Assembly (NCBI GenBank): GCA_963830465.1
Contig: CAWHME010000001.1
Span: 127,515 to 191,514 of the forward strand
DNA: 64,000 nucleotides
Source of the DNA: an uncultured Solirubrobacterales bacterium
Lineage (GTDB): Bacteria; Actinomycetota; Thermoleophilia; Solirubrobacterales; Solirubrobacteraceae
Reading direction: 5' to 3'
The notes below the pieces were generated by a model. It did no database searches. It was given only the letters and a program-made list of their open reading frames with translations, and had not been told where the DNA came from. This document shows positions 4,211 to 50,646 of this stretch, in pieces. Both the position numbers and the translations under genes were made by a program. How positions within the stretch are numbered: position 1 is the first letter of the stretch; each line of letters opens with the position of its first letter.

Positions 4211-4226
4211 CGTGGCGGCATTCCTC

Positions 4227-4877
4227 TCACGACGTCGGCTTCCAATGGAACGTGAGCGTCACCCGGTGCGGCGCCAGCCACACTTTCTGGTACTCGACAT
4301 GACGCGCGGACACGGGTGGGCTGACGAGCAAGCTCAGTTGATAGCTGCCGGCGCCCGGGACGCTCACATCGTTGCCGTAGTGCGGGCCCATGTACCTGGA
4401 GATCATCGGCCACTGGCGCTCGTCGTAGACGAGTTTTCCGTCCTTGCTGATCGTCGCCCACACCGTCGCATACGGGATCGCCACCCCGGTTTGCGAGTCG
4501 CGGAGCATCACCATCAGGTGAAAGCTCGTCTTTGGTCCGGGCTTGACCATCTGCTCGCTGGAGCCGTTGTAGATCACGAATGGAACCGGCGTCATCGCCT
4601 GCGCTGTGATCTTCATTCCCTGCCAGGTGGTGCTCGCCAATACCTGCGTGGGCACCGGCTTGATCCCGGCGATCGCGGCGCCGGTTCCTGAGCTCGCGCC
4701 GCCGCTCATGTTCATCCCGGACATGCCGCTCGAGCTCGTGGCTGTTCCCGAGCCGCTCGCGGATACGGCCGTCGAGACGGTCTTGTTGGCGCTCGCGCAC
4801 CCGGCGGCCAGGATCCCCGCCACCGCGATCGGGATCGCGCGCCGAGCGGCAGGGTTGAAGTTGCGTAGGTCAAACAT
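4227..4877 (-). CDS. Lipoprotein, Fe2+-transport (Tp34 / P19 / FetP-like) family
   Basis: MFDLRNFNPAARRAIPIAVAGILAAGC lipobox with GAGGAA RBS upstream of ATG 4877. C-terminal FHLMVMLRDSQTGVAIPYATVWATISKDGK...ISRYMGPHYGNDV resembles proteins annotated as iron transporter (PF10634-like). Lies 16 nt upstream of the Dyp gene. Confidence 0.6.
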   Translation of the reverse strand: MFDLRNFNPAARRAIPIAVAGILAAGCASANKTVSTAVSASGSGTATSSSGMSGMNMSGGASSGTGAAIAGIKPVPTQVLASTTWQGMKITAQAMTPVPFVIYNGSSEQMVKPGPKTSFHLMVMLRDSQTGVAIPYATVWATISKDGKLVYDERQWPMISRYMGPHYGNDVSVPGAGSYQLSLLVSPPVSARHVEYQKVWLAPHRVTLTFHWKPTS

Positions 4878-4973
4878 CGCACAGTTCCTCGGAGGTTTCG
4901 GTCTGGTTTGCATTTGAGAGGCCGCGTCGGTCGGCGCGTCGCCCACATATCGTGCTCAGCGTCGCGATCATCG

Positions 4974-5960
4974 CTATCCCGGTGCAGCGATCCGGCGAGT
5001 GGCTTCAAATCGCGGCTCCAGGCTCGGCGACTCGTACGGGGTCAGCCCGAAGAGCGCGATTGCGAGCAGAATGAACGGTGGCCCGGCGTTGGGGTCCGTC
5101 GCTCCCCCCTGGAAGATCCCTCCCAGCCCCTCCCCGAGTACCCAGTAGGCGAGGTTCAGCGCGATCGCGAGGGCCAGGAACAGACGTGGCCGCCAGTTGA
5201 CAGCGACCGCCACGCCGATCGCGGCCGATAGCAGCGCGAGCATGAGCGCGATCGGAAGGCCGTTCCCCTTGGCACCGCTCGCAACCCAGTCTTGGACAGT
5301 GCTCAGCCAGCTCATTCCCGACGGGGCAGCGTTGATCGAGTTACTGACCGCGTTCGCGCTGCTGCTGGGGGCCTCCAGCCACAGCCATGCCATCACGAGC
5401 CAGAGCACCGCCCAGGCGATCCTTGCGCCGCGGACTCCGAGCAGGCCGCCCGGTCGAGCGGTCGGCCACACGATCAGGCCGATGATCCCGTACAGCAGCA
5501 CCGCGCCGGGAGCGCCGGTGAGCGGGCTCGCCATCGTCATCAACAACATCCCGAACGACTCGCCGAACCACCACACGATCAGCGCCCACACGAACGACAG
5601 CGCCAGCGCCGGCTTCACCGTGCGGCGATAAAGCAATCCGAGACCGATCAGGACCTGGGTCAGCGCAAACAGCGTGTTGTAGACGGCCAGATTGTGCTGG
5701 GCCAGATGCGCGGCCCACTCGACGCTGCTCGCGACCCAGCCCGGCTGACCTGCCGTCATGTTGGTGAGCATTTGGATGAAGCCCTTGGAATACATGAACG
5801 ATTGGAACTGCAGGCCTCCATCCAGCAGCCACAGCAAGCCGAGGACGGTCTGGATCGTGCGCCGGGTATCCGACGCGAAGTACTCCCGCGCTCGCGCGAC
5901 TGCAGTGCTGCTGTCGGCGCGACCGACGGCGCCGGCCTCAAAGTTGGCAGCGCTACTCAC
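4974..5960 (-). CDS. Polytopic integral membrane protein, unassigned family
   Basis: Track ORF 4974..6584, but only the last ~329 codons are hydrophobic and protein-like. AAGGAGG sits 5 nt upstream of GTG 5960 (alternative ATG 5984). No REXXE motifs, so not FTR1/EfeU. Confidence 0.6.
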   Translation of the reverse strand: MSSAANFEAGAVGRADSSTAVARAREYFASDTRRTIQTVLGLLWLLDGGLQFQSFMYSKGFIQMLTNMTAGQPGWVASSVEWAAHLAQHNLAVYNTLFALTQVLIGLGLLYRRTVKPALALSFVWALIVWWFGESFGMLLMTMASPLTGAPGAVLLYGIIGLIVWPTARPGGLLGVRGARIAWAVLWLVMAWLWLEAPSSSANAVSNSINAAPSGMSWLSTVQDWVASGAKGNGLPIALMLALLSAAIGVAVAVNWRPRLFLALAIALNLAYWVLGEGLGGIFQGGATDPNAGPPFILLAIALFGLTPYESPSLEPRFEATRRIAAPG

Positions 5961-41913: not shown

Positions 41914-42813
41914 TCACGTCTTCTCGAAGACCATCCGGTAGTGGTCCATCAGCTCCCGCTCGAAGCACACGCTGTTTGAGCTGACGCCCGACGTGAAGGC
42001 GAACCGGAAGTCGGGGTCTCTGAGCCAGCGCGGCAGTAGACGGAGCTTGAGCAAAGCCAGTCTCGGGCTCCAGGACTCCGTCCGCCGATCCCATTGGCGG
42101 ATGGTTTCGATGTAGTCGAGTCTGCCGCTGACACTCGATGCGAGCCTGAAGTGCGGTGCGGCGCAGCGAACGACTTGCTCCTGGCCGAAGGGCAGGAACG
42201 AGCCGGGGAACGCCGCCGCCATCATCGCGAGATACCAGGCATCAGAGTCCCGCGCAGCATGACGATCGATCTCCTCAACCGGAATCATGTTGCGTCCGAA
42301 GACCATCGTCTGGAGGTAGAACCGCCCCTTGTCCGGCAGCAACCCAGCGACGCGCTCGAAGAGCCGGCGGTACACGGCCTCCTGACGACCCGCGCGGTAG
42401 TCCTCCGGAGAGCAGAAGTGCTCGAAGGCACCGAGGCTTGCGACGGCATCGAAGGGGCCAAAGCTCTCGCGGGTGACTTCTCGCGCGTCGTGGAGATGGA
42501 CGTCGAGGCCATGACGACGGCACGCCGCGACCTGTGCCGATGACAGGGTCACGCCGACCCCGGTCGCGCCGATGCTCCGGACATAAGCGAGCAGACCGCC
42601 CCAACCGCAGCCGAGGTCGAGCACGCGCCGCCCAGGTTCGATCCCGATCTGCTCGGCAACGTATTCGTGCTTACGTCGCTGAGCCTGCTCCAGCGTCAGC
42701 GTGAAGTCGCCGTCGTACTTCGCTGCGCTGAAGTCGGCCAGCTCCCCCAAGCTGAGCCGGATCACGCGATCGGTCAGCGAGTAGCTGAAATCTAGGTCAG
42801 TGCGGTCGGCCAT
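41914..42813 (-). CDS. Cyclopropane-fatty-acyl-phospholipid synthase family SAM methyltransferase
   Basis: RVLDLGCGWGGLLAYV SAM motif plus CMAS-family N- and C-terminal blocks. Confidence 0.85.
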   Translation of the reverse strand: MADRTDLDFSYSLTDRVIRLSLGELADFSAAKYDGDFTLTLEQAQRRKHEYVAEQIGIEPGRRVLDLGCGWGGLLAYVRSIGATGVGVTLSSAQVAACRRHGLDVHLHDAREVTRESFGPFDAVASLGAFEHFCSPEDYRAGRQEAVYRRLFERVAGLLPDKGRFYLQTMVFGRNMIPVEEIDRHAARDSDAWYLAMMAAAFPGSFLPFGQEQVVRCAAPHFRLASSVSGRLDYIETIRQWDRRTESWSPRLALLKLRLLPRWLRDPDFRFAFTSGVSSNSVCFERELMDHYRMVFEKT

Positions 42814-43019: not shown

Positions 43020-43451
43020 CTAGTCAGCCCACCAGCCGCGCTGACCCTCCACGTCCTCGCGCAAAGCCTCACCGAGATTGGGCGCGCCGACCACGATCAA
43101 CTCGAGGCCGTCCGGCCCGGCTTCGTAGCCTCGCCAGGTACCGGGCGGGACGCGCACCACGTCCCACTCCTGGAGCTCCACGATCTCGTCGTCGAGCTTC
43201 ATTCGCCCGCCGCCGCGCACGACCACGTAGACCTCCTCCTGCCTCCTGTGGGTGTGGCCGTACGGGAAGCGATAGTCGGGCGGGACGCGCTGATAGCTGA
43301 GACCGGACTGCTCGAGCTCGAGCGCGTGGCTCGCCAAGCGGAACTCGAGCTCTGGCGCGCCGTCGAACTTGGGCCCGACGTCCTCCAGATCCGTCTTGAG
43401 ATTTTTGACCGTGAACGGCACCCCGGGCAATCTAGCTCGGCCGGTCCCCAT
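43020..43451 (-). CDS. Cupin domain protein
   Basis: YGHTHRRQEEVYVVVRGGGRMKLDDEIVELQEWDVVRVPPGTWRGYEAG cupin core. Confidence 0.7.
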   Translation of the reverse strand: MGTGRARLPGVPFTVKNLKTDLEDVGPKFDGAPELEFRLASHALELEQSGLSYQRVPPDYRFPYGHTHRRQEEVYVVVRGGGRMKLDDEIVELQEWDVVRVPPGTWRGYEAGPDGLELIVVGAPNLGEALREDVEGQRGWWAD

Positions 43452-43510
43452 GGCTAGCGCCGGGATGGCGTCCGACGCGCTCGCGTTGCCGATTGGCGCC
43501 CTGTGACGCC

Positions 43511-43911
43511 TCACCGTCGAGCCGCACCGAGACCGGCCCGGAGCACATTGACGCTGCTCGGATTCGAGGAAGCAGTCAGCTTGTGGCAGGCCGAGAGCTC
43601 GGCCGCGGTCAAGGACTCGTGCTGGTCTTTGAATAGGACTCCGGCTGACTTCCCATAGTACTCGTCCCCAGGACGCGTAAAGCCGGGGATGCTCACCTCG
43701 GGTTTGGGAGTCACCACGATGTTATGCACGAGGTCCTGGACCGTGAAATGCACCGTGCACGAGGTCCTGGACCGTGAAATGCACCGTGCACGAGGTCCTG
43801 GACCGTGAAATGCACCGTCGCGGTCCACACCTGGGCCTCGACCCATCCCTTCTGCCCGGGCGGGATCGTCAGCGTCGTGTCTCTTCCGTAGCTGGTTGAC
43901 ACGGTACCCAT
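43511..43911 (-). pseudogene. Small hypothetical gene split into two frames by a 31-bp x3 tandem repeat
   Basis: Track ORFs 43711..44022 and 43511..43846 both read TVHFTVQDLVH through one repeat copy. With a single copy they join as ...WTATVHFTVQDLVHNIVVTPKPEVSIPGF.... Confidence 0.6.
43726..43818. repeat. Perfect 31-bp tandem repeat, 3 copies (GCACGAGGTCCTGGACCGTGAAATGCACCGT)
   Basis: Copies at 43726-43756, 43757-43787 and 43788-43818, read directly from the sequence. Confidence 0.95.
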
Positions 43912-44241
43912 CTGCCTACTCGTGACTTTCGCGTCGATCGACGCTTTCCCGAACGCGGGACATCTCTGCGGATGCTTTGACGGAGAAACCGGCCATCCAC
44001 CGGGCCGGGCCTTTGGCGTCACAGCTCAGCTGGCGGGGACGCGCGCCCCATCCGCCCTCAGCCCAACCGAATGGGCTGGCCTACTCCCGGTGTGTCGAGG
44101 CCGTCTGCGCGCGTCCGGGCACCGCTAATGGGAGGGTCGGTATAGGGTCATCCCGATTGTGCCGCGGCAGTCGCGCGGAGATCATCGCTGATCCGGGTGG
44201 CGGCATGGCCCCCCGGTCAGCGGTTTTTCAAGGAGCGGAGG

Positions 44242-44433
44242 ATGGACGACAAGCGCAGACAGAAGTGGGAGGCAGGCGCGCGCGGGTTCCTCGAGCCCGG
44301 CGAGCAGGTGGTCGCTGCCGCGCCCGGGCAGAACGCGGAGAGGATGTGGCCGATTCCGTTCTTCGTCGATTCGATTGGCCTCCCGCTGCTCCAGCGCGCT
44401 CGCGGGAGGCTGTCGGAATATCGGTGTCGTCTG
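44242..44433 (+). pseudogene. 5' fragment of a small bacterial-PH-like gene truncated at the IS
   Basis: GGAGCGGAGG RBS before ATG 44242. MDDKRRQKWEAGARGFLEPGEQVVAAAPGQN... resembles N-termini of small actinobacterial PH-domain-like proteins. Coding sense is lost near 44434. Confidence 0.35.
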
Positions 44434-44456
44434 GCGGGTTTAAGACACTTCTCGGT

Positions 44457-44544
44457 ATGGCTCGAGATTTCGTTTCGTGTGAGCGCGGCCAGTTGTTGTT
44501 GATGCCGCTGTCGCTGTTGGAGTGGCTGCCTGAGGATCACTTGG
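44457..44544 (+). pseudogene. IS1182-family transposase, exon 1
   Basis: MARDFVSCERGQLLLMPLSLLEWLPEDHL is the typical DUF772/IS1182 N-terminus. Confidence 0.7.
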
Positions 44545-44910
44545 GTAGCGCCGGGATAAACCGGCATGGAGAAGGAGCTGAGAGGGCTCTACGTCGAAGG
44601 TGTAGCGATCCACGACGGCCCCGAGTCATGCGTCGGCGCCCGCGAGGGCGTCGGCGAAGTGTTGACAGGGGTGCGCGTAGGCTGGGCTATTGAGCCTCGA
44701 AATTCCTGCATTCAGGGCGCCGACGCCGTCCAGGTGGCGGAAGGCAATACCGCCGGCAGCGTTTTCGCGAGCCGTCGGCGGGCTCTGCGGGGTCAGGGAA
44801 CCTGTGCATGCGCGCGATCTCTCGATGCGCGAGAACCGGGAGGTCCCACGGTCACCCGCTTGTGGTGATGGTTGGGTGGGTCGTGCGGGGAAGGCTGAGG
44901 CCGTAATCCC

Positions 44911-46404
44911 GTGATGGACGATCGTGGGAAGTCAGACGGTCCTGTAGTACCTGCGAAGCTGCCGAACAACGCCCAGGGCGGGGTGGCGGAGGTGGTGGAG
45001 GGAAGAGGACCGGCCAAGGGGAACGCGGCCAGGGAAACACGCGCCGGACTCAGAGCCGGGATTGGCGTGTCCAATGACCTGGATCGTGTGCGCCGAGCGG
45101 CTCGGAAGGATAAGGATGCTCAGTTCACCGCGCTCCTGCACCACGTCGACGTTGACCTTCTTCGGGCTGCGTACTTCGCGCTTCGGCCGAAGGCCGCTCC
45201 CGGAGTGGATGGCGTGACGTGGGCGGATTACGGGCTGAATCTCGAGGGGAACCTTCGGGACCTGCACGCTCGAGTCCACCGCGGGGGCTACCGGGCGAAG
45301 CCGTCACGGAGGGCGTTCATCCCGAAGGCCGACGGGCGGCAGCGGCCGCTCGGCGTCGCTGCGCTGGAGGACAAGATCCTGCAGCGGGCGCTGGTCGAGG
45401 TGCTGAATGCGATCTACGAGTCGGACTTTGTCGGGTTCTCGTATGGGTTTCGGCCGGGGCGGCGTCCGCATGATGCGTTGGACGCGCTCGCGGCTGGGAT
45501 CAAGACGAGGCATGTGAACTGGGTGCTCGACGCGGATTTCCGCGAGTTCTTCACCAGCCTTGACCATCGGTGGCTGGTGAGGTTCCTGGAGCACCGAATC
45601 GCGGACAGGAGGGTCCTGCGTCTGATCCAGCGATGGCTCAGCGCAGGGGTCATTGAGGAGGGGTCATGGACGGCGTGTGAGGAGGGTGTCCCTCAAGGGG
45701 CGTCAGCGTCGCCGCTGTTGGCGAACGTGTACCTGCACTACGTCTTCGACCTGTGGGCTCATCAGTGGAGAGGTCGGCACGCGCGCGGCGAGGTAGTGAT
45801 CGTGCGCTTCGCCGATGACTTCGTGGTGGGGTTCGAGTACCGGAGCGACGCGCTGCGGTTCTGGGCAGATCTCCGCGACAGGCTCGCGCAGTTCTGCTTG
45901 GAGCTCAACGCGGACAAGACGCGCCTGATCGAGTTCGGCCGGTTCGCCGCCGAGCGCCGAGGGGCGCATGGTCGCGGCAAGCCGGAGACGTTCCAGTTCC
46001 TGGGCTTCACGCACTGCTGCGCGCAGACCAGGAGGGGAAGGTTCAAGCTCAAGCGAATCACCGACTCGAAGCGGATGCGGACGAAGCTGGGCGAGGTCAA
46101 GGCCACGCTCATCCAACGCCGAGATCTGCCCATTCCCGAGCAGGCCCGCTGGCTCGCCAGCGTCCTGCGCGGGCACTGCAATTACTACGCGGTGCCCGAC
46201 AACTACGAGGCGATCAACGCCTTCCGCCAGCTAATCATCCGGCACTGGCTCAAGGCGCTGCGGCGTCGCAGCCAGCGGTCTCGGCTGACCTGGCAGCGGA
46301 TGTATCTCCTCGCGGAACGATGGCTACCTCCCGTTCAGATACTGCACCCCTGGCCCGAGCCTCGCTTCTACGCCAACACCCAAGGCAGGAGCCCAGTGCG
46401 TTAA
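44911..46404 (+). CDS. Group II intron reverse transcriptase/maturase (no endonuclease domain)
   Basis: FTALLHHV, APGVDGVTW, RRAFIPKADGRQRPLGV, GVPQGASASPLLANVYL, RFADDFVVGF (YADD-type) and RGHCNYYAVPDN (X domain). The true start may be GTG 45067. Confidence 0.9.
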   Translation: MMDDRGKSDGPVVPAKLPNNAQGGVAEVVEGRGPAKGNAARETRAGLRAGIGVSNDLDRVRRAARKDKDAQFTALLHHVDVDLLRAAYFALRPKAAPGVDGVTWADYGLNLEGNLRDLHARVHRGGYRAKPSRRAFIPKADGRQRPLGVAALEDKILQRALVEVLNAIYESDFVGFSYGFRPGRRPHDALDALAAGIKTRHVNWVLDADFREFFTSLDHRWLVRFLEHRIADRRVLRLIQRWLSAGVIEEGSWTACEEGVPQGASASPLLANVYLHYVFDLWAHQWRGRHARGEVVIVRFADDFVVGFEYRSDALRFWADLRDRLAQFCLELNADKTRLIEFGRFAAERRGAHGRGKPETFQFLGFTHCCAQTRRGRFKLKRITDSKRMRTKLGEVKATLIQRRDLPIPEQARWLASVLRGHCNYYAVPDNYEAINAFRQLIIRHWLKALRRRSQRSRLTWQRMYLLAERWLPPVQILHPWPEPRFYANTQGRSPVR

Positions 46405-46460
46405 CGCGCACGCTGGGATCTGTGCGGGGGGCCGTCGGCAACGGCGGTCCCTACCGCGAT
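46389..46460 (+). ncRNA. Group II intron domains V and VI
   Basis: GAGCCCA-GUGCG-loop-CGCAC-GC(bulge)-UGGGAUC with an AGC triad. Followed by UGCGG/GGG...CCC-UA-CCGCG helix ending ...CGCGAU. Confidence 0.6.
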
Positions 46461-47912
46461 CGTGGGCGATCTTGGGTGCGGTTGATCAGATGGATCTGGG
46501 TCGCTTTCGGGAGGGGTATCGGCTGGGTGGGGCGGGTCGGCCGGCGTATGACCCGGCGATGCTAGTGGCGCTGCTTTTGTATGCGTATGCGCGGGGGAAC
46601 CGGTCCTCGCGTCAGATTGAGCGGGGGTGCTGGGAGGATGTCGCCTACAAGGTGATCACGAGCATGCGGGTGCCGGATCACTCGACGATCGCGGAGTTCC
46701 GACGCCGGCACGAGAGCGAGATCGCCGAGCTGTTCGATGATGTGCTTGGGCTGTGCGGGGAGGCGGGGCTTGTGTCGGGCGGGGTGATTCTGGTCGACGG
46801 GACGAGGATCAAGGCGAACGCGTCGATGGATCAGAACCGCTCCTACTCGGGCTTGGTCAGGGAGATCCTGCGTGAGGCTGAGGAGACCGACCGGCGTGAG
46901 GACGAGCTCTACGGTGATGCGCGTGGGGATGAGTTGCCTAAAGCAGCTGCGCACCAGCGACGCTCGACGCGCGGCGCTGGCGGAGGCCAAGCGGCGGATC
47001 GAGGAGCGCAAAGGCCGCGCGGTCGGCCCGCAGGAGCCCGACGGGGACGTCGAGATGGATCCGGAGTTGGTGCTCGGCCGGGGTGGTCGGCGTGGGGGGC
47101 GACGCGAGTGGCCTCGGGTCGCGCGCCGCGAGCTGGAGTCGCGGCGGGAGCGCCAGGCAGACCCGATCCCGCGCGATCGAGAGGACCGTCTCTTTCAAGC
47201 GCTCGGTCGGCTTGAGGAGAACCACAGGGTCGATCTGGCAGCCAACGACGCCTACCAGCGCTGGCGCTCAAGCTCGCGCGACACGCTCGGGCGCCGGTTG
47301 AAGGGCAACAGCAAGCCGTATCTGCCGCCGGACGCGCCGGAGGGGCAGGTCAACCTGTCCGATCCGGATTCGCGGGTGATGCGCAGCAAGGGGCTGCCGC
47401 ACCGCCAGGCCTATAACGTGCAGACCGCGGTGACTGAGCGACAGATCATCCTCGCCGCCGAGATCCCGCCGGACGCGCCCGACTTCGGGCACCTGGAGCC
47501 GATGCTCGAGGTGACGCTCGCTCACCTGCACCACCACAGCATCACCGAGCAGCCCGAGGCGCTCGTCGCTGACGCCGGCTACTGGCACACCCGCCAGATC
47601 CAGGCGATCCAAGAACGCGGGATCGAGGTGCTCGTCCCGCCCGACGGCGCGATGCGCGAGGGCAACCGCCCCGGCTGGGAGAACGGGCTCTACCAGCAGA
47701 TGCGAGAAAAGCTCGACACCGCGCGCGGCCGCGCGCTCTACGCCCTGCGCAAAACCACGATCGAGCCTGTGTTCGGACAGATCAAATACAACCGGCGCGT
47801 CGATCAGTTCATGCGAACAGGCAGAGCCGCCGTGCACTCGGAGCTGCGGTTGCTGGCAGCAACACACAACATGCTCAAGCTCCACAACCACTGGATCGCC
47901 AACACCGCCTGA
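46461..47912 (+). pseudogene. IS1182-family transposase, exon 2, with a +1 frameshift near 46940
   Basis: WAILGAVDQMDLGRF...AYDPAMLVALLLYAYARGNRSSRQIE...GDELP (frame of 46472), then KQLRTSDARRAALAEAKRRIEE...ADAGYWH...EPVFGQIKYNRR (frame of 46872). Confidence 0.8.
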
Positions 47913-48007
47913 GGAAACACGCCGCCCCCCCGCCCGGCGAGCGGTCCCGCCAAACCGCAGACCATCCAAACCTCGCTGTCTCCGCATTTTTCAACAGCCT
48001 CGCGGCT

Positions 48008-48239
48008 ATGTCGTCACCGAGCGCCACATTTTACCTGTGTCGCCTGAGCTCACTGCACAACAACAAGGTCGAGGAGGTGCTCGTGAAGCGACGGCTGGGT
48101 GACGTCCAGATCCAGTTTCGCCGCAACCGCCTGACGCTCGACGGGCGCGATCCCGTTTACGTCGGCTGGCTACCGGGCGCGCGAGGTGGTCGCCGCGGCG
48201 AGCGCGAACGCGCCGGACGACGTCGCCGCGAAGCTCTGA
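48008..48239 (+). pseudogene. 3' fragment of a PH-like gene with an internal frameshift
   Basis: FYLCRLSSLHNNKVEEVLVKRRLGDVQIQFRRNRLTLDGRDPVYV. A natural-looking tail SAGYRAREVVAAASANAPDDVAAKL-stop follows in another frame. Confidence 0.35.
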
Positions 48240-48722
48240 GTTTCGCCGCCCGCTCGGTCGCTCAACCAGTTGCAGCATGATCACCGAGGTGAAGGGCTTG
48301 AGTTGCTGCCGACCTGCCACAACGCCGCGGTTGAGACCCCAGGACCGCCCCCGTAGCGGGTGGTCCCGACGGCCACATTGACGCTCGGCCGGGCTCGGAA
48401 GGTGACCCCGAGCGAGACCGCCGAGACACGCTCGCCCTTCCCCCCGCTGGCTAGGTACTGACTTAGATCCTTACGCGGTGCGGAGCTCAGCGTGCTCCCG
48501 GCGCCGATGCCGCCGCCGGCAGTGCCCGCGCCGGCCCAGCCTTCCAGGCACAGCACGATCAGCGCCGCAGCGGCGCCACACAGCCCGAGTACCTGCCGGC
48601 TGCCGCACAGGCCACCGAGACATCGCGAACGCTGCAGCAAACCTCCCAACCCTGCACCCGTCTTCCGTAGCGCCCGGCAATGTACCAGCGGCAAGCGCTG
48701 TTCTCCTCACCGCGAGCAGGAA

Positions 48723-48950
48723 TCACGCCGGGTGATCAGGGGGTGACCCTCGAGGTCCCGACCGGCTCGCCACACCAGCTTTCGTCGGGATACGCGAGGT
48801 GTGGCTCTTCAGCGTGTCGACCGAAACGAACAGCCGCTGAGCGATTCGAGCGTAGGTGAGGTCAAGGGGCAACATGCGCAGCACGCCCAGCTCGGCCGCG
48901 GTGAGCTCGTCCCCCGCGGGTACGAGCCAGGACCACATCGCGCTGCCCAA
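48723..48950 (-). pseudogene. LuxR/GerE-type HTH remnant (C-terminal domain only)
   Basis: ELTAAELGVLRMLPLDLTYARIAQRLFVSVDTLKSHTSRI matches the LuxR C-terminal HTH. There is no receiver or ATPase part upstream, and the tail is divergent. Confidence 0.6.
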
Positions 48951-49020
48951 GGTTGCGTATCAACTGTTTGCCGAGCCTCTGCAGTCGTGGCAGGGCATGG
49001 AAAGGGTGGGGTGGTGAGGT

Positions 49021-49250
49021 GTCGTTGGCGGGGGTTGGCGTGTGGGGTGTTGGGTGGGTGCAGTTGGCGGGGGCTGGCCGATGGGATGTTGGGGGGTGCG
49101 GTCGGCAGGGTTGGCGGGCGGAGCGGGGGTGCGGTCGGCGGGGTTGGCGGGCGGAGCGGGGGTGCGGTCGGCGGGGTTGGCGGGCGGAGCGGGGTGTTGG
49201 CGGGTGCGGTCGGCAGGGTTGGCGTGAGGGGTTTCGGCGGGTGCGTCGGC
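49021..49250. repeat. G-rich degenerate tandem tract with a 33-bp x3 core (49096-49194)
   Basis: Core unit GTGCGGTCGGCGGGGTTGGCGGGCGGAGCGGGG. Units 2 and 3 are identical and unit 1 has one change. Degenerate GGGGTTGGCG-like copies flank the core. Confidence 0.9.
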
Positions 49251-49293
49251 GGGCGCCGGACAGCGCGCGAAAACCGGATCGGTGACTCCCCGC

Positions 49294-49414
49294 GGCTAGG
49301 ATCAGCCGGCGAACCTGAACTTTTGCGATTTTTGTCCGAGGGGTGGACACGAATTGTGGAAGTTCGCCGGCGGCCGGAATTCTCAGCCCGGATCCACGCC
49401 GTCACCGCCGCGCG
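49294..49414. repeat. 121-bp dispersed repeat, copy A
   Basis: GGCTAGGATCAGCCGGCGAACCTGAACTTTTGCGATTTTTGTCCGAGGGGTGGACACGAATTGTGGAAGTTCGCCGGCGGCCGGAATTCTCAGCC.... Copy B lies 177 bp downstream with only a few mismatches by eye. Confidence 0.9.
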
Positions 49415-49470
49415 CCGTCGGGTGGTCATGCGGCGCACGGCGTCAAACCCGGGGTCGCTGACCTCCGGGC

Positions 49471-49591
49471 GGCTGGGATCAGCCGGCGACTCTGAACTCT
49501 TGCGATTCATGTCCGAGGGGTGGACACGAATTGCGGAAGTTCGCCGGCGGCCGGAATTCTCAGCCGGATCCACCCCCGTCACCGCCGCGCG
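49471..49591. repeat. 121-bp dispersed repeat, copy B
   Basis: Same-orientation copy of 49294-49414, with a few substitutions and compensating 1-nt indels. Confidence 0.9.
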
Positions 49592-49757
49592 TCCGCCGAC
49601 CGGCGGCCCTCTCGCGGCCGGCGGCCCCGCCGGCCGGGCCGCCCGCGGCGCGCGGCCCCGGGCGGTGTCGCGCTGCGCCCGCGCGGCGGAGAGAGGATCC
49701 CGGTTGCCTTCGCGATCGCGCTGGTCAAGCCTGCCCCTGCAAGCTTCAGGTGCGCGA

Positions 49758-49868
49758 GCGCGATCTCGCTGGCTCGGTCCACACCGGCGCGCAAGCGCGA
49801 TCTCGCTGGCTCGGTCCACACCGGCGCGCAAGCGCGATCTCGTTGGCTCGGTCCACACCGGCGCGCGA
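49758..49868. repeat. 37-bp tandem repeat x3 (plus partial flanking copies), iteron-like
   Basis: GCGCGATCTCGCTGGCTCGGTCCACACCGGCGCGCAA at 49758, 49795 and 49832. The third copy has 2 changes. Confidence 0.95.
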
Positions 49869-49931
49869 GCGCGACGGCACGCTCGGGGTGCTCCCGGGCG
49901 TCACCGCTGTCGCCACATACCCGACAAACCT

Positions 49932-49977
49932 TTGACATTTAGTACGTGCGTGCTAGACTGATGCTATGCGTACTAAA
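49932..49977 (+). promoter_or_regulatory. Sigma-70-like promoter (TTGACA-16 nt-TAGACT) with 9-bp inverted repeat operator; leaderless TetR mRNA predicted
   Basis: -35 at 49932-49937, -10 at 49954-49959, ATG at 49966 (7 nt after the -10). TTTAGTACG (49938-49946) and CGTACTAAA (49969-49977) form a perfect inverted repeat flanking the -10. Confidence 0.6.
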
Positions 49978-50646
49978 CCGGGAGATCGTACGCCCCCCAG
50001 TACGTTCACCCAGCGAAAGCGGCGCGAACAATTGGTGGCTTGTGCTATCGACACGATCGTCGACCTCGGGTTCCAGGGCATGTCGGTGGGCGAGGTCGCT
50101 CGCCGCGCCGGTGTGAGCAAGGGCGTAGTCACCTATCACTTCCCCGTCAAGGACGACTTGATCTATGGGGTCGTCGCGCAGATCTTCGACTCGATCACGG
50201 AGTTCTTGGAATCCCGGCTGGGGCGAACAACACCCGAGACGTTCGTCGCTGACTACATCACCGCTTGGGTCGAGTACTACGGGACACATACGCCATATAT
50301 GCTCGCGATCGGCGAGATCTGGTCCAACTTTCGGGACGAGACCGGTCACCGCCACTTCGGCGACCAGGCAATCGCGGGCGAGTTGGCCAACGTCCAGCGT
50401 GCGCTCGAGCTCGGCCAGGCTAACGGCAGCCGCGGACAGTTCTCGGCTCGGGTGATGGCGGTGACTATGAAGGCCGCCCTCGACGCCCTGCTCGATCAGC
50501 TCGCGAGTGACGCGAAGCTAGATCTCGCGGCCTACGGCGCCGAACTTGTCGCCTTGTTTGAACGCGCGACTCGTGTAGACCCCAGCGGCGTACATATTCA
50601 GGCAGACGATGTAGCGACATCGTCAACCGGAAAGAAGCAGACATGA
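49966..50646 (+). CDS. TetR family transcriptional regulator
   Basis: REQLVACAIDTIVDLGFQGMSVGEVARRAGVSKGVVTYHFPVKDDL HTH. Confidence 0.85.
   Translation: MRTKPGDRTPPSTFTQRKRREQLVACAIDTIVDLGFQGMSVGEVARRAGVSKGVVTYHFPVKDDLIYGVVAQIFDSITEFLESRLGRTTPETFVADYITAWVEYYGTHTPYMLAIGEIWSNFRDETGHRHFGDQAIAGELANVQRALELGQANGSRGQFSARVMAVTMKAALDALLDQLASDAKLDLAAYGAELVALFERATRVDPSGVHIQADDVATSSTGKKQT

Follow-up and report, generated by a model that had tools for sequence, protein, structure and literature searches.

The locus described here lies on the minus strand of a 64-kb window, the window being the whole stretch of DNA that was analysed, and comprises a perfect tandem array of a 31-nt unit embedded in what appears to be the remains of a gene. 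On the plus strand, positions 43725-43817 consist of TGCACGAGGTCCTGGACCGTGAAATGCACCG repeated three times in tandem with zero mismatches, as established by reading of the sequence and by an exact scan. Period-31 identity in the exact scan covers 43725..43818 (94 nt), T 43818 being one extra matching base, and Tandem Repeats Finder returned the same interval (43725-43818, period 31, 3.0 copies, 100% matches, score 188). All three approaches agree with an initial annotation of the DNA that had noted a perfect 31-bp triplication at 43726-43818, the same array in a register one base off. By Tandem Repeats Finder, no other array in the 64 kb combines a unit of this length with three perfect copies. 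No further copy of the unit occurs within the window at up to three mismatches (none are expected from 100 shuffles), and at the same tolerance the window holds no related dispersed units of the mycobacterial MIRU type; among JGI metagenome contigs, no other contig carries the exact 31-nt unit. With 31 nt in three head-to-tail copies, the array fits the 10-100-nt unit length by which a VNTR or minisatellite is recognized. The features of the locus are as follows.

43725..43755, minus strand: copy 1 of the 31-nt unit in plus-strand order, the last copy in the coding sense (exact identity).
43756..43786, minus strand: copy 2 of the unit (exact identity), which together with one neighbouring copy makes up a 62-nt insertion (DNA alignment columns 192-253).
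43787..43818, minus strand: copy 3 of the unit with the extra base T 43818 (period-31 identity), that T being the sole microhomology at the junction.
43799-43808 and 43818-43827, no strand: imperfect inverted repeat TGGACCGTGA / TCGCGGTCCA, lying across the right-hand end of the unit.
43574..43996, minus strand: putative gene relic whose homology covers residues 117-236 of a family of secreted 236-237-aa proteins (P0002, P0006, P0007), read in three frames with two frame breaks.
43957..43960, minus strand: second lesion, one additional nucleotide in a C-run (GGG 43957-43959 on the plus strand), visible as a single-column gap in three homologues (column 51 of alignment A4).
43997..44000, minus strand: 5' breakpoint of homology, columns 1-14 of alignment A4 being unrelated.
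43511..43573, minus strand: read-through tail ASSNPSSVNVLRAGLGAARR, extending 20 codons past the stop of the homologues (...AC(H/Q)(A/S)LTP, stop) and entering a cupin ORF at its 5' end.

Downstream of the relic, the minus strand encodes the cupin protein (43020-43514, Cupin_2) and a CMAS-type SAM methyltransferase (41914-42813, PF02353, E 1e-31). Within 1 kb on the other side lies an IS element (~44400-48005) with a DUF772 + DDE_Tnp_1 transposase and candidate terminal inverted repeats at 44403-44421 and 47986-48004, 15 of whose 19 bases match. The transposase gene, starting at ATG 44457, is split by a plus-strand group II intron (~44545-46460; Rfam D1-D4 model at 44581-44802, 183 bits) that carries its own RT/maturase ORF (44911-46404, RVT_1 and GIIM); exon 1 ends in ...LEWLPEDHL, and exon 2 resumes after the intron at ~46455 with ...WAILGAVDQMDL. 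The second part is spread over two frames that overlap (46472-47215 and 46872-47912), so the transposase is either frameshifted or subject to programmed frameshifting. In two public sequencing runs, X1 and X4, depth rises from ~4 to >130 at ~44547, and ahead of this position the X4 contigs diverge; the community thus contains the intron in multiple copies, with its 5' end near 44545-44548. A small plus-strand ORF with good GC3 (44197-44400 and 48005-48240; ...GFLEPGEQVVAAAPGQ...PIPFFVDSIGLPLLQRAR) is seemingly cut by the IS element and seems to resume past it (YVVTERH... / ...FYLCRLSSLHNNKVEEVLVKRRLGDVQIQF...), with a possible frame change at a TTTT run at ~48025; its joined product had no match in NCBIfam. 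At a distance of 5-6 kb from the array and upstream of a TetR gene (49966-50646), the stretch 48800-49960 is repeat-rich and probably non-coding. It contains a 33-nt array (3.1 copies, 98%, 49092-49194), a 37-nt array (3.3 copies, 96%, 49752-49874) and a direct repeat of ~85 nt (~49290-49375 and ~49475-49560), and the long ORFs on both of its strands had no Pfam match and low-complexity translations. The 11-mer CGGTCCACACC, located at 43821-43831, 3 nt off the right end of our array, recurs at 49775/49812/49849; a meaningful link between the arrays through this word was rejected, 17 of 100 shuffles reaching four matches.

Frame arithmetic confirmed that, 31 not being a multiple of three, the three copies are read on the coding strand as TVHFTVQDLVH, GAFHGPGPRA and RCISRSRTSC, as had been noted earlier. 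When the minus-strand ORF from ATG 43911 was computed for zero to five copies, the frame was open only with one copy (112 aa) or four (143 aa), and early stops truncated the product to 35, 52, 66 and 83 aa with zero, two, three and five copies, respectively; unit number thus sets the frame, and since the unit has no stop in any of its three frames, four copies also give an ORF. The single-copy ORF reaches 149 aa if begun at GTG 44022. The earlier proposal that one or four copies would yield an intact protein of ~130 aa therefore holds for the frame, which is open at one or four and broken at three, but not for the product, which is 112 aa long (149 aa from GTG 44022) and represents only a fragment of a 237-aa family. 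Third-position GC was used as a coding signal in this sequence of 65-70% GC. The GC3 phase differs between the left and right sides of the array, and the phases coincide only with 62 nt removed; for the single-copy ORF, GC1/2/3 amounts to 0.59/0.51/0.77, and for neighbouring genes GC3 lies between 0.81 and 0.87.

To which proteins the relic is related was addressed by homology searches. A word-indexed protein search with the single-copy ORF returned only P0001, the window's own gene call, an 80-aa GTG-started fragment which by exact look-up is on no other contig. An exhaustive phmmer search of the single-copy product against 1.84 billion representative proteins identified one true relative, P0002 (237 aa, E 8e-18), aligned in one stretch over query residues 1-92 and spanning the repeat site; the matches P0003-P0005 were rejected as spurious, being repetitive proteins (LRR-like and similar). 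Two more members, P0006 (236 aa) and P0007 (237 aa), emerged from searches with P0002 and then with a profile of the family; P0007 is encoded at L006 5611-6324 in an uncultured Solirubrobacterales MAG. These three, all of 236-237 aa and all with signal peptides, are the only members known from 1.8 billion representatives and 5.8 billion clusters, and no short family member was found among the 5.8 billion clusters. They are 47-48% identical to the window locus, at which level they are family members and not proven orthologues. No Pfam or NCBIfam family was matched by the single-copy ORF, P0002, P0006 or a 424-aa protein encoded next to the family gene. The HMM search of the reconstructed single-copy protein that had been advised at the outset thus yielded a relative, P0002, and no Pfam/NCBIfam family. 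A profile search of PDB sequences gave a chance match only (E 0.6), the AlphaFold2 model of P0006, built on a 3-sequence alignment, was unusable (mean pLDDT 29.4), and JGI metagenome contigs scanned with the family alignment contained no match.

In its intact form the family gene is the second of two genes in a very rare cassette that encodes uncharacterised secreted proteins, one of 421-424 aa followed by the one of 236-237 aa (L001 262-2289; L004 8694-11860; L005; L006 4218-7202). The larger gene precedes the family gene at all four of these loci, although in L006 it seems to be split into ORFs at 4218-4949 and 5014-5568, and in three of the four (L004, L005 and L006) the next gene encodes a YkuD L,D-transpeptidase. 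Neither companion is present here: tblastn with the 424-aa protein found no 421-424-aa partner gene in the window, the YkuD neighbour is likewise absent from the window, and the neighbours of the relic are the cupin gene and the IS element. There is no real synteny with L004, despite a CMAS gene ~10 kb from the intact homologue there.

Alignment with the family members revealed how much of the gene is left. By tblastn the relic falls into two segments, in frames -2 and -1, and the family HMM matches it at positions 130-187 and 174-236; a third frame contributes MAGFSVKASAEM (43996..43961), which matches family residues 117-128. In a blastn comparison, L004 10349-10558 aligns to window positions 43996-43786 at 69% identity, continuously through the frame jump. 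ATG 43911, from which the short ORF would start, corresponds to a conserved internal Met (motif S(K/S/R)QMGxV(S/A)T, residue 145 of the homologues), and homology extends upstream of it as KASIDAKVTSRQ. Further upstream the frame changes between MAGFSVKASAEM and AFGKASIDAK, so that it is shifted on the upstream side of the array as well; reading through both lesions produces a gap-free protein alignment over family columns 119-238. An additional nucleotide in a homopolymer would be a typical long-read error, though the same nucleotide is found in an X1 contig that is identical to the window over 43789-44153. Beyond the breakpoint at 43997..44000, low-stringency tblastn produced only noise, and family positions 1-116, which comprise the signal peptide and the RLCDxLxDCQF...ISDERGESN block, were not detected in the 64 kb by a six-frame HMM search with filters off; the idea that another part of the window harbours the lost N-terminal half was rejected on this basis. 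At the opposite end the family stop codon is lost. The IS element was considered as the agent that cut the gene and rejected, its inverted repeats (~44403-44421 and ~47986-48004) lying ~400 nt from the breakpoint at ~43997.

Partial homology to full-length proteins combined with frame-breaking and truncating lesions is what characterizes a pseudogene in sequence, and both are found here. Judged from these alignments, the "small gene" is best described as a pseudogene relic with at least four lesions (+62 nt, +1 nt, 5' truncation and lost stop), of which the triplication is one and could be the first. Its host gene appears to be a member of the very rare family of ~237-aa secreted proteins, found in Solirubrobacterales-like soil bacteria. 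Bringing the repeat back into frame would not recover the protein, because the N-terminal half, the signal peptide and the stop are lost and a further frameshift is present. The coding-like GC3 of the 112-aa ORF (0.77) makes it conceivable that a leaderless C-terminal fragment may retain some residual function.

The homologues also indicate the ancestral state of the repeat site. P0002, P0006 and P0007 read ...VWTA(T/N)(V/L)(H/T)(F/Y)xV(K)DLVHNI(V/L)L... once in the protein alignment, and the site aligns without a gap (VWTATVHFTVQDLVHNIVV in the window against VWTATVHFEVKDLVHNIVL in the homologues). In a DNA alignment of four genes (window, L004, L006 and L001) the window differs by one clean block of exactly 62 nt, equal to two extra units. 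No repeat tract is present at the site in any of the three homologues (P0002, P0006 and P0007/L006, each single-copy). Because three intact homologues carry one copy, aligned without a gap, one copy is ancestral and the window represents a 1-to-3 amplification (+62 nt).

Taken together, these observations probably reflect a recent tandem amplification within a decayed C-terminal gene relic, out of frame, neutral and perhaps VNTR-like, and no working switch. The amplified stretch is former coding sequence, and the overlap at the junction is a single T. A first duplication would have come about through a replication slip or a template switch that had hardly any microhomology to use, perhaps helped by stalling at the nearby imperfect hairpin. 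In a single-copy reconstruction this hairpin folds with a 10-bp stem and a 9-nt loop at -11.2 kcal/mol (z = -1.6, not significant). A 6-nt ATGCAC direct repeat was considered as microhomology for the slippage and rejected, its spacing being 24 nt and not 31. The third copy may then have been gained by slipped mispairing or unequal exchange between two perfect 31-nt copies, a step that would be far easier than the first. Units could subsequently be gained and lost as in any perfect tandem repeat, leading to possible copy-number variation. The perfect identity of the copies had been taken to imply, among other options, a very recent event; the copies indeed show no differences, but a recent origin and homogenisation through continuing gain and loss of units would both account for this. 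Since the gene was already (or later became) non-functional, an out-of-frame array would have been neutral and retained. The presence of the IS element, the group II intron and the repeat-rich non-coding stretch suggests that the neighbourhood is a region of relaxed constraint. The significance of the locus is small: a frame-rotating perfect repeat that resembles a switch turns into a pseudogene scar once the homologues are aligned as DNA. The event is of a known kind, slippage amplification or a VNTR in a pseudogene, and the by-product of its study is a rare, uncharacterised family of secreted proteins.

The main alternative to such an amplification is a miscount in the assembly or its consensus, in which the true number of copies would be one or two and the third copy, or the whole array, would have been made by the assembler or polisher. 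Evidence on this point came from public sequencing runs. The only runs found to hold the window are X1 and X4, both DNA, of low coverage and from one soil-metagenome study, with 47-85% (X1) and 21-23% (X4) of the sampled window words present in their Logan contigs (k = 31); no RNA runs and no Nanopore runs with the locus were found. X4 provides no coverage at the array. In X1 the graph at the array has four elements: on the left a flank contig that ends at 43754, then a shared node of 32 nt and a loop of 59 nt, and on the right a flank contig that starts at 43789. The loop consists of 29 k-mers that are possible only with two adjacent units, and because these junction k-mers are present, at least two adjacent copies are real in X1. 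As k equals the unit length of 31, Logan contigs separate two from three copies by depth alone, and de Bruijn contigs cannot resolve the copy number, although depth still gave a hint. For n uniform copies the node should have n times, and the loop (n-1) times, the flank depth. The depths observed were 4.6 and 3.9 for the flanks (about 4.2) and 4 for the shared unit node, and every loop k-mer had a depth of exactly 2. In simulations with read lengths of 100, 150 and 250 nt and a local k-mer depth between 1.5 and 4.2, the X1 pattern (flanks without a break, each loop k-mer at exactly 2) had the following probabilities.

Uniform three copies: ≤ ~1e-4.
Uniform two copies: 0.008-0.15.
Mixture of one and three copies (50:50): 0.007-0.13.

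The X1 depths thus fit poorly with a uniform three copies (P ≤ 1e-4), as a miscount would predict, under the assumption that the reported depth is the mean k-mer count. Against it, the depth signal amounts to one or two reads or fragments, X1 may come from another sample or strain than the assembled one, and the junction k-mers require reads with at least two adjacent copies. To our knowledge, consensus errors from long reads do not typically take the form of a perfect 31-nt gain. The earlier suspicion of an assembly artefact therefore gains something from the poor fit of the depths to three uniform copies, but a pure artefact is unlikely for the duplication, given the junction k-mers in X1. 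As a whole we regard the miscount as unlikely. What the depths offer is a hint of copy-number variation: there may be two copies, or a mixture of copy numbers, in the X1 population, or the assembly may have over-counted.

According to a second alternative, which is among those the initial annotation had put forward, the array is a copy-number on/off switch of an intact small protein, that is, a contingency locus in which hypermutable slippage turns a protein of 112-143 aa on at one or four copies and off at two or three. Its appeal lies in a unit that is not a multiple of three, in perfect copies with all three frames open and in X1 depths hinting that the copy number is not uniformly three; moreover, frame-breaking repeats that revert by loss of a unit are known, as in the 8-bp repeat of phnE in E. 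coli K-12 (PMC13492104). The ORF, however, is a fragment: Met 43911 is internal, there is no signal peptide, unlike in all homologues, a frameshift and the 5' breakpoint lie just upstream of it, and the stop codon is lost. The repeat is absent in all three homologues, the searched databases contain no short family member, and on inspection of the sequence no convincing ribosome-binding site precedes ATG 43911, where only AGG is found 4 nt upstream. With a truncated relic, a second frameshift, a lost stop and a tract that is not conserved, the proposed switch does not stand, and we consider it highly improbable. A related reading, in which the array is unstable in a natural soil population, molecules with one, two and three copies coexist, as the X1 depths may hint, and gain and loss of units toggles an expressed, leaderless C-terminal domain (112 aa at one copy, 143 aa at four), has an equally slim chance of being correct; if true, an uncultured Solirubrobacterales-like bacterium would possess a counterpart of simple-sequence contingency loci with a long unit.

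Finally, a function of the array as DNA or RNA, through protein-binding sites or a structured RNA, is barely credible: the fold of the 136-nt array region is indeed more stable than that of shuffled sequences for either strand (z = -3.7 and -3.0), and every unit of the 37-nt array contains the 11-mer found beside this one, but a low fold energy is expected of a tandem repeat with a small palindrome (z = -0.6 for a single unit), the shared 11-mer is within chance and represents two independent sites, the array has no Rfam match, and the unit is former coding sequence, codon-for-codon homologous to intact genes.

The favoured reading, a neutral out-of-frame amplification within a gene relic, can be compared with several known systems. 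In most respects the locus is like an ordinary pseudogene beside mobile elements, as these are generally known: the match to the family is partial, there are several frame-breaking lesions, the start and the signal peptide are missing, and an IS element and a group II intron lie within 1 kb. Compared with such pseudogenes, the only oddity is a perfect three-copy 31-nt array in place of an indel of 1-2 nt. In contingency loci, slipped-strand mispairing takes place in homopolymers or in repeats of 2-7 nt (reviewed in PMC11868660). The likeness to them is that unit number sets the frame and would change via slippage; their units are short and present in many copies, the gene around them is otherwise intact and strains share the tract, and the last three of these properties do not apply here.

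The phnE gene of E. coli K-12 contains an 'ABB' tandem repeat in which one additional 8-bp unit throws the gene out of frame; when that unit is lost, function returns. Strand-slippage mispairing has been proposed to be responsible, and natural isolates commonly have the broken allele (PMC13492104). Both loci have a short tandem repeat within an ORF, with a unit that is not a multiple of three and a copy number that decides the frame. They differ in that the unit here is 31 nt and not 8, in that two extra units are present and not one, and in that phnE is otherwise intact whereas the relic is otherwise broken. In Mycobacterium tuberculosis, VNTRs with units of tens of bases in 2-4 copies differ among strains and among the reads of one culture, with read-level heterogeneity of two versus three copies, and some intragenic changes shift the frame (PMC12817950). 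Where phase variation has been argued for, the repeats mostly lie in promoters, alter expression and vary across many isolates (PMC12817950). Unlike for those VNTRs, variation here is hinted at by one or two reads, the array lies in a relic, and the window contains no dispersed units. By analogy, phnE would be the closest functional counterpart of the array described here, and the M. tuberculosis repeats would be the closest actinobacterial one.
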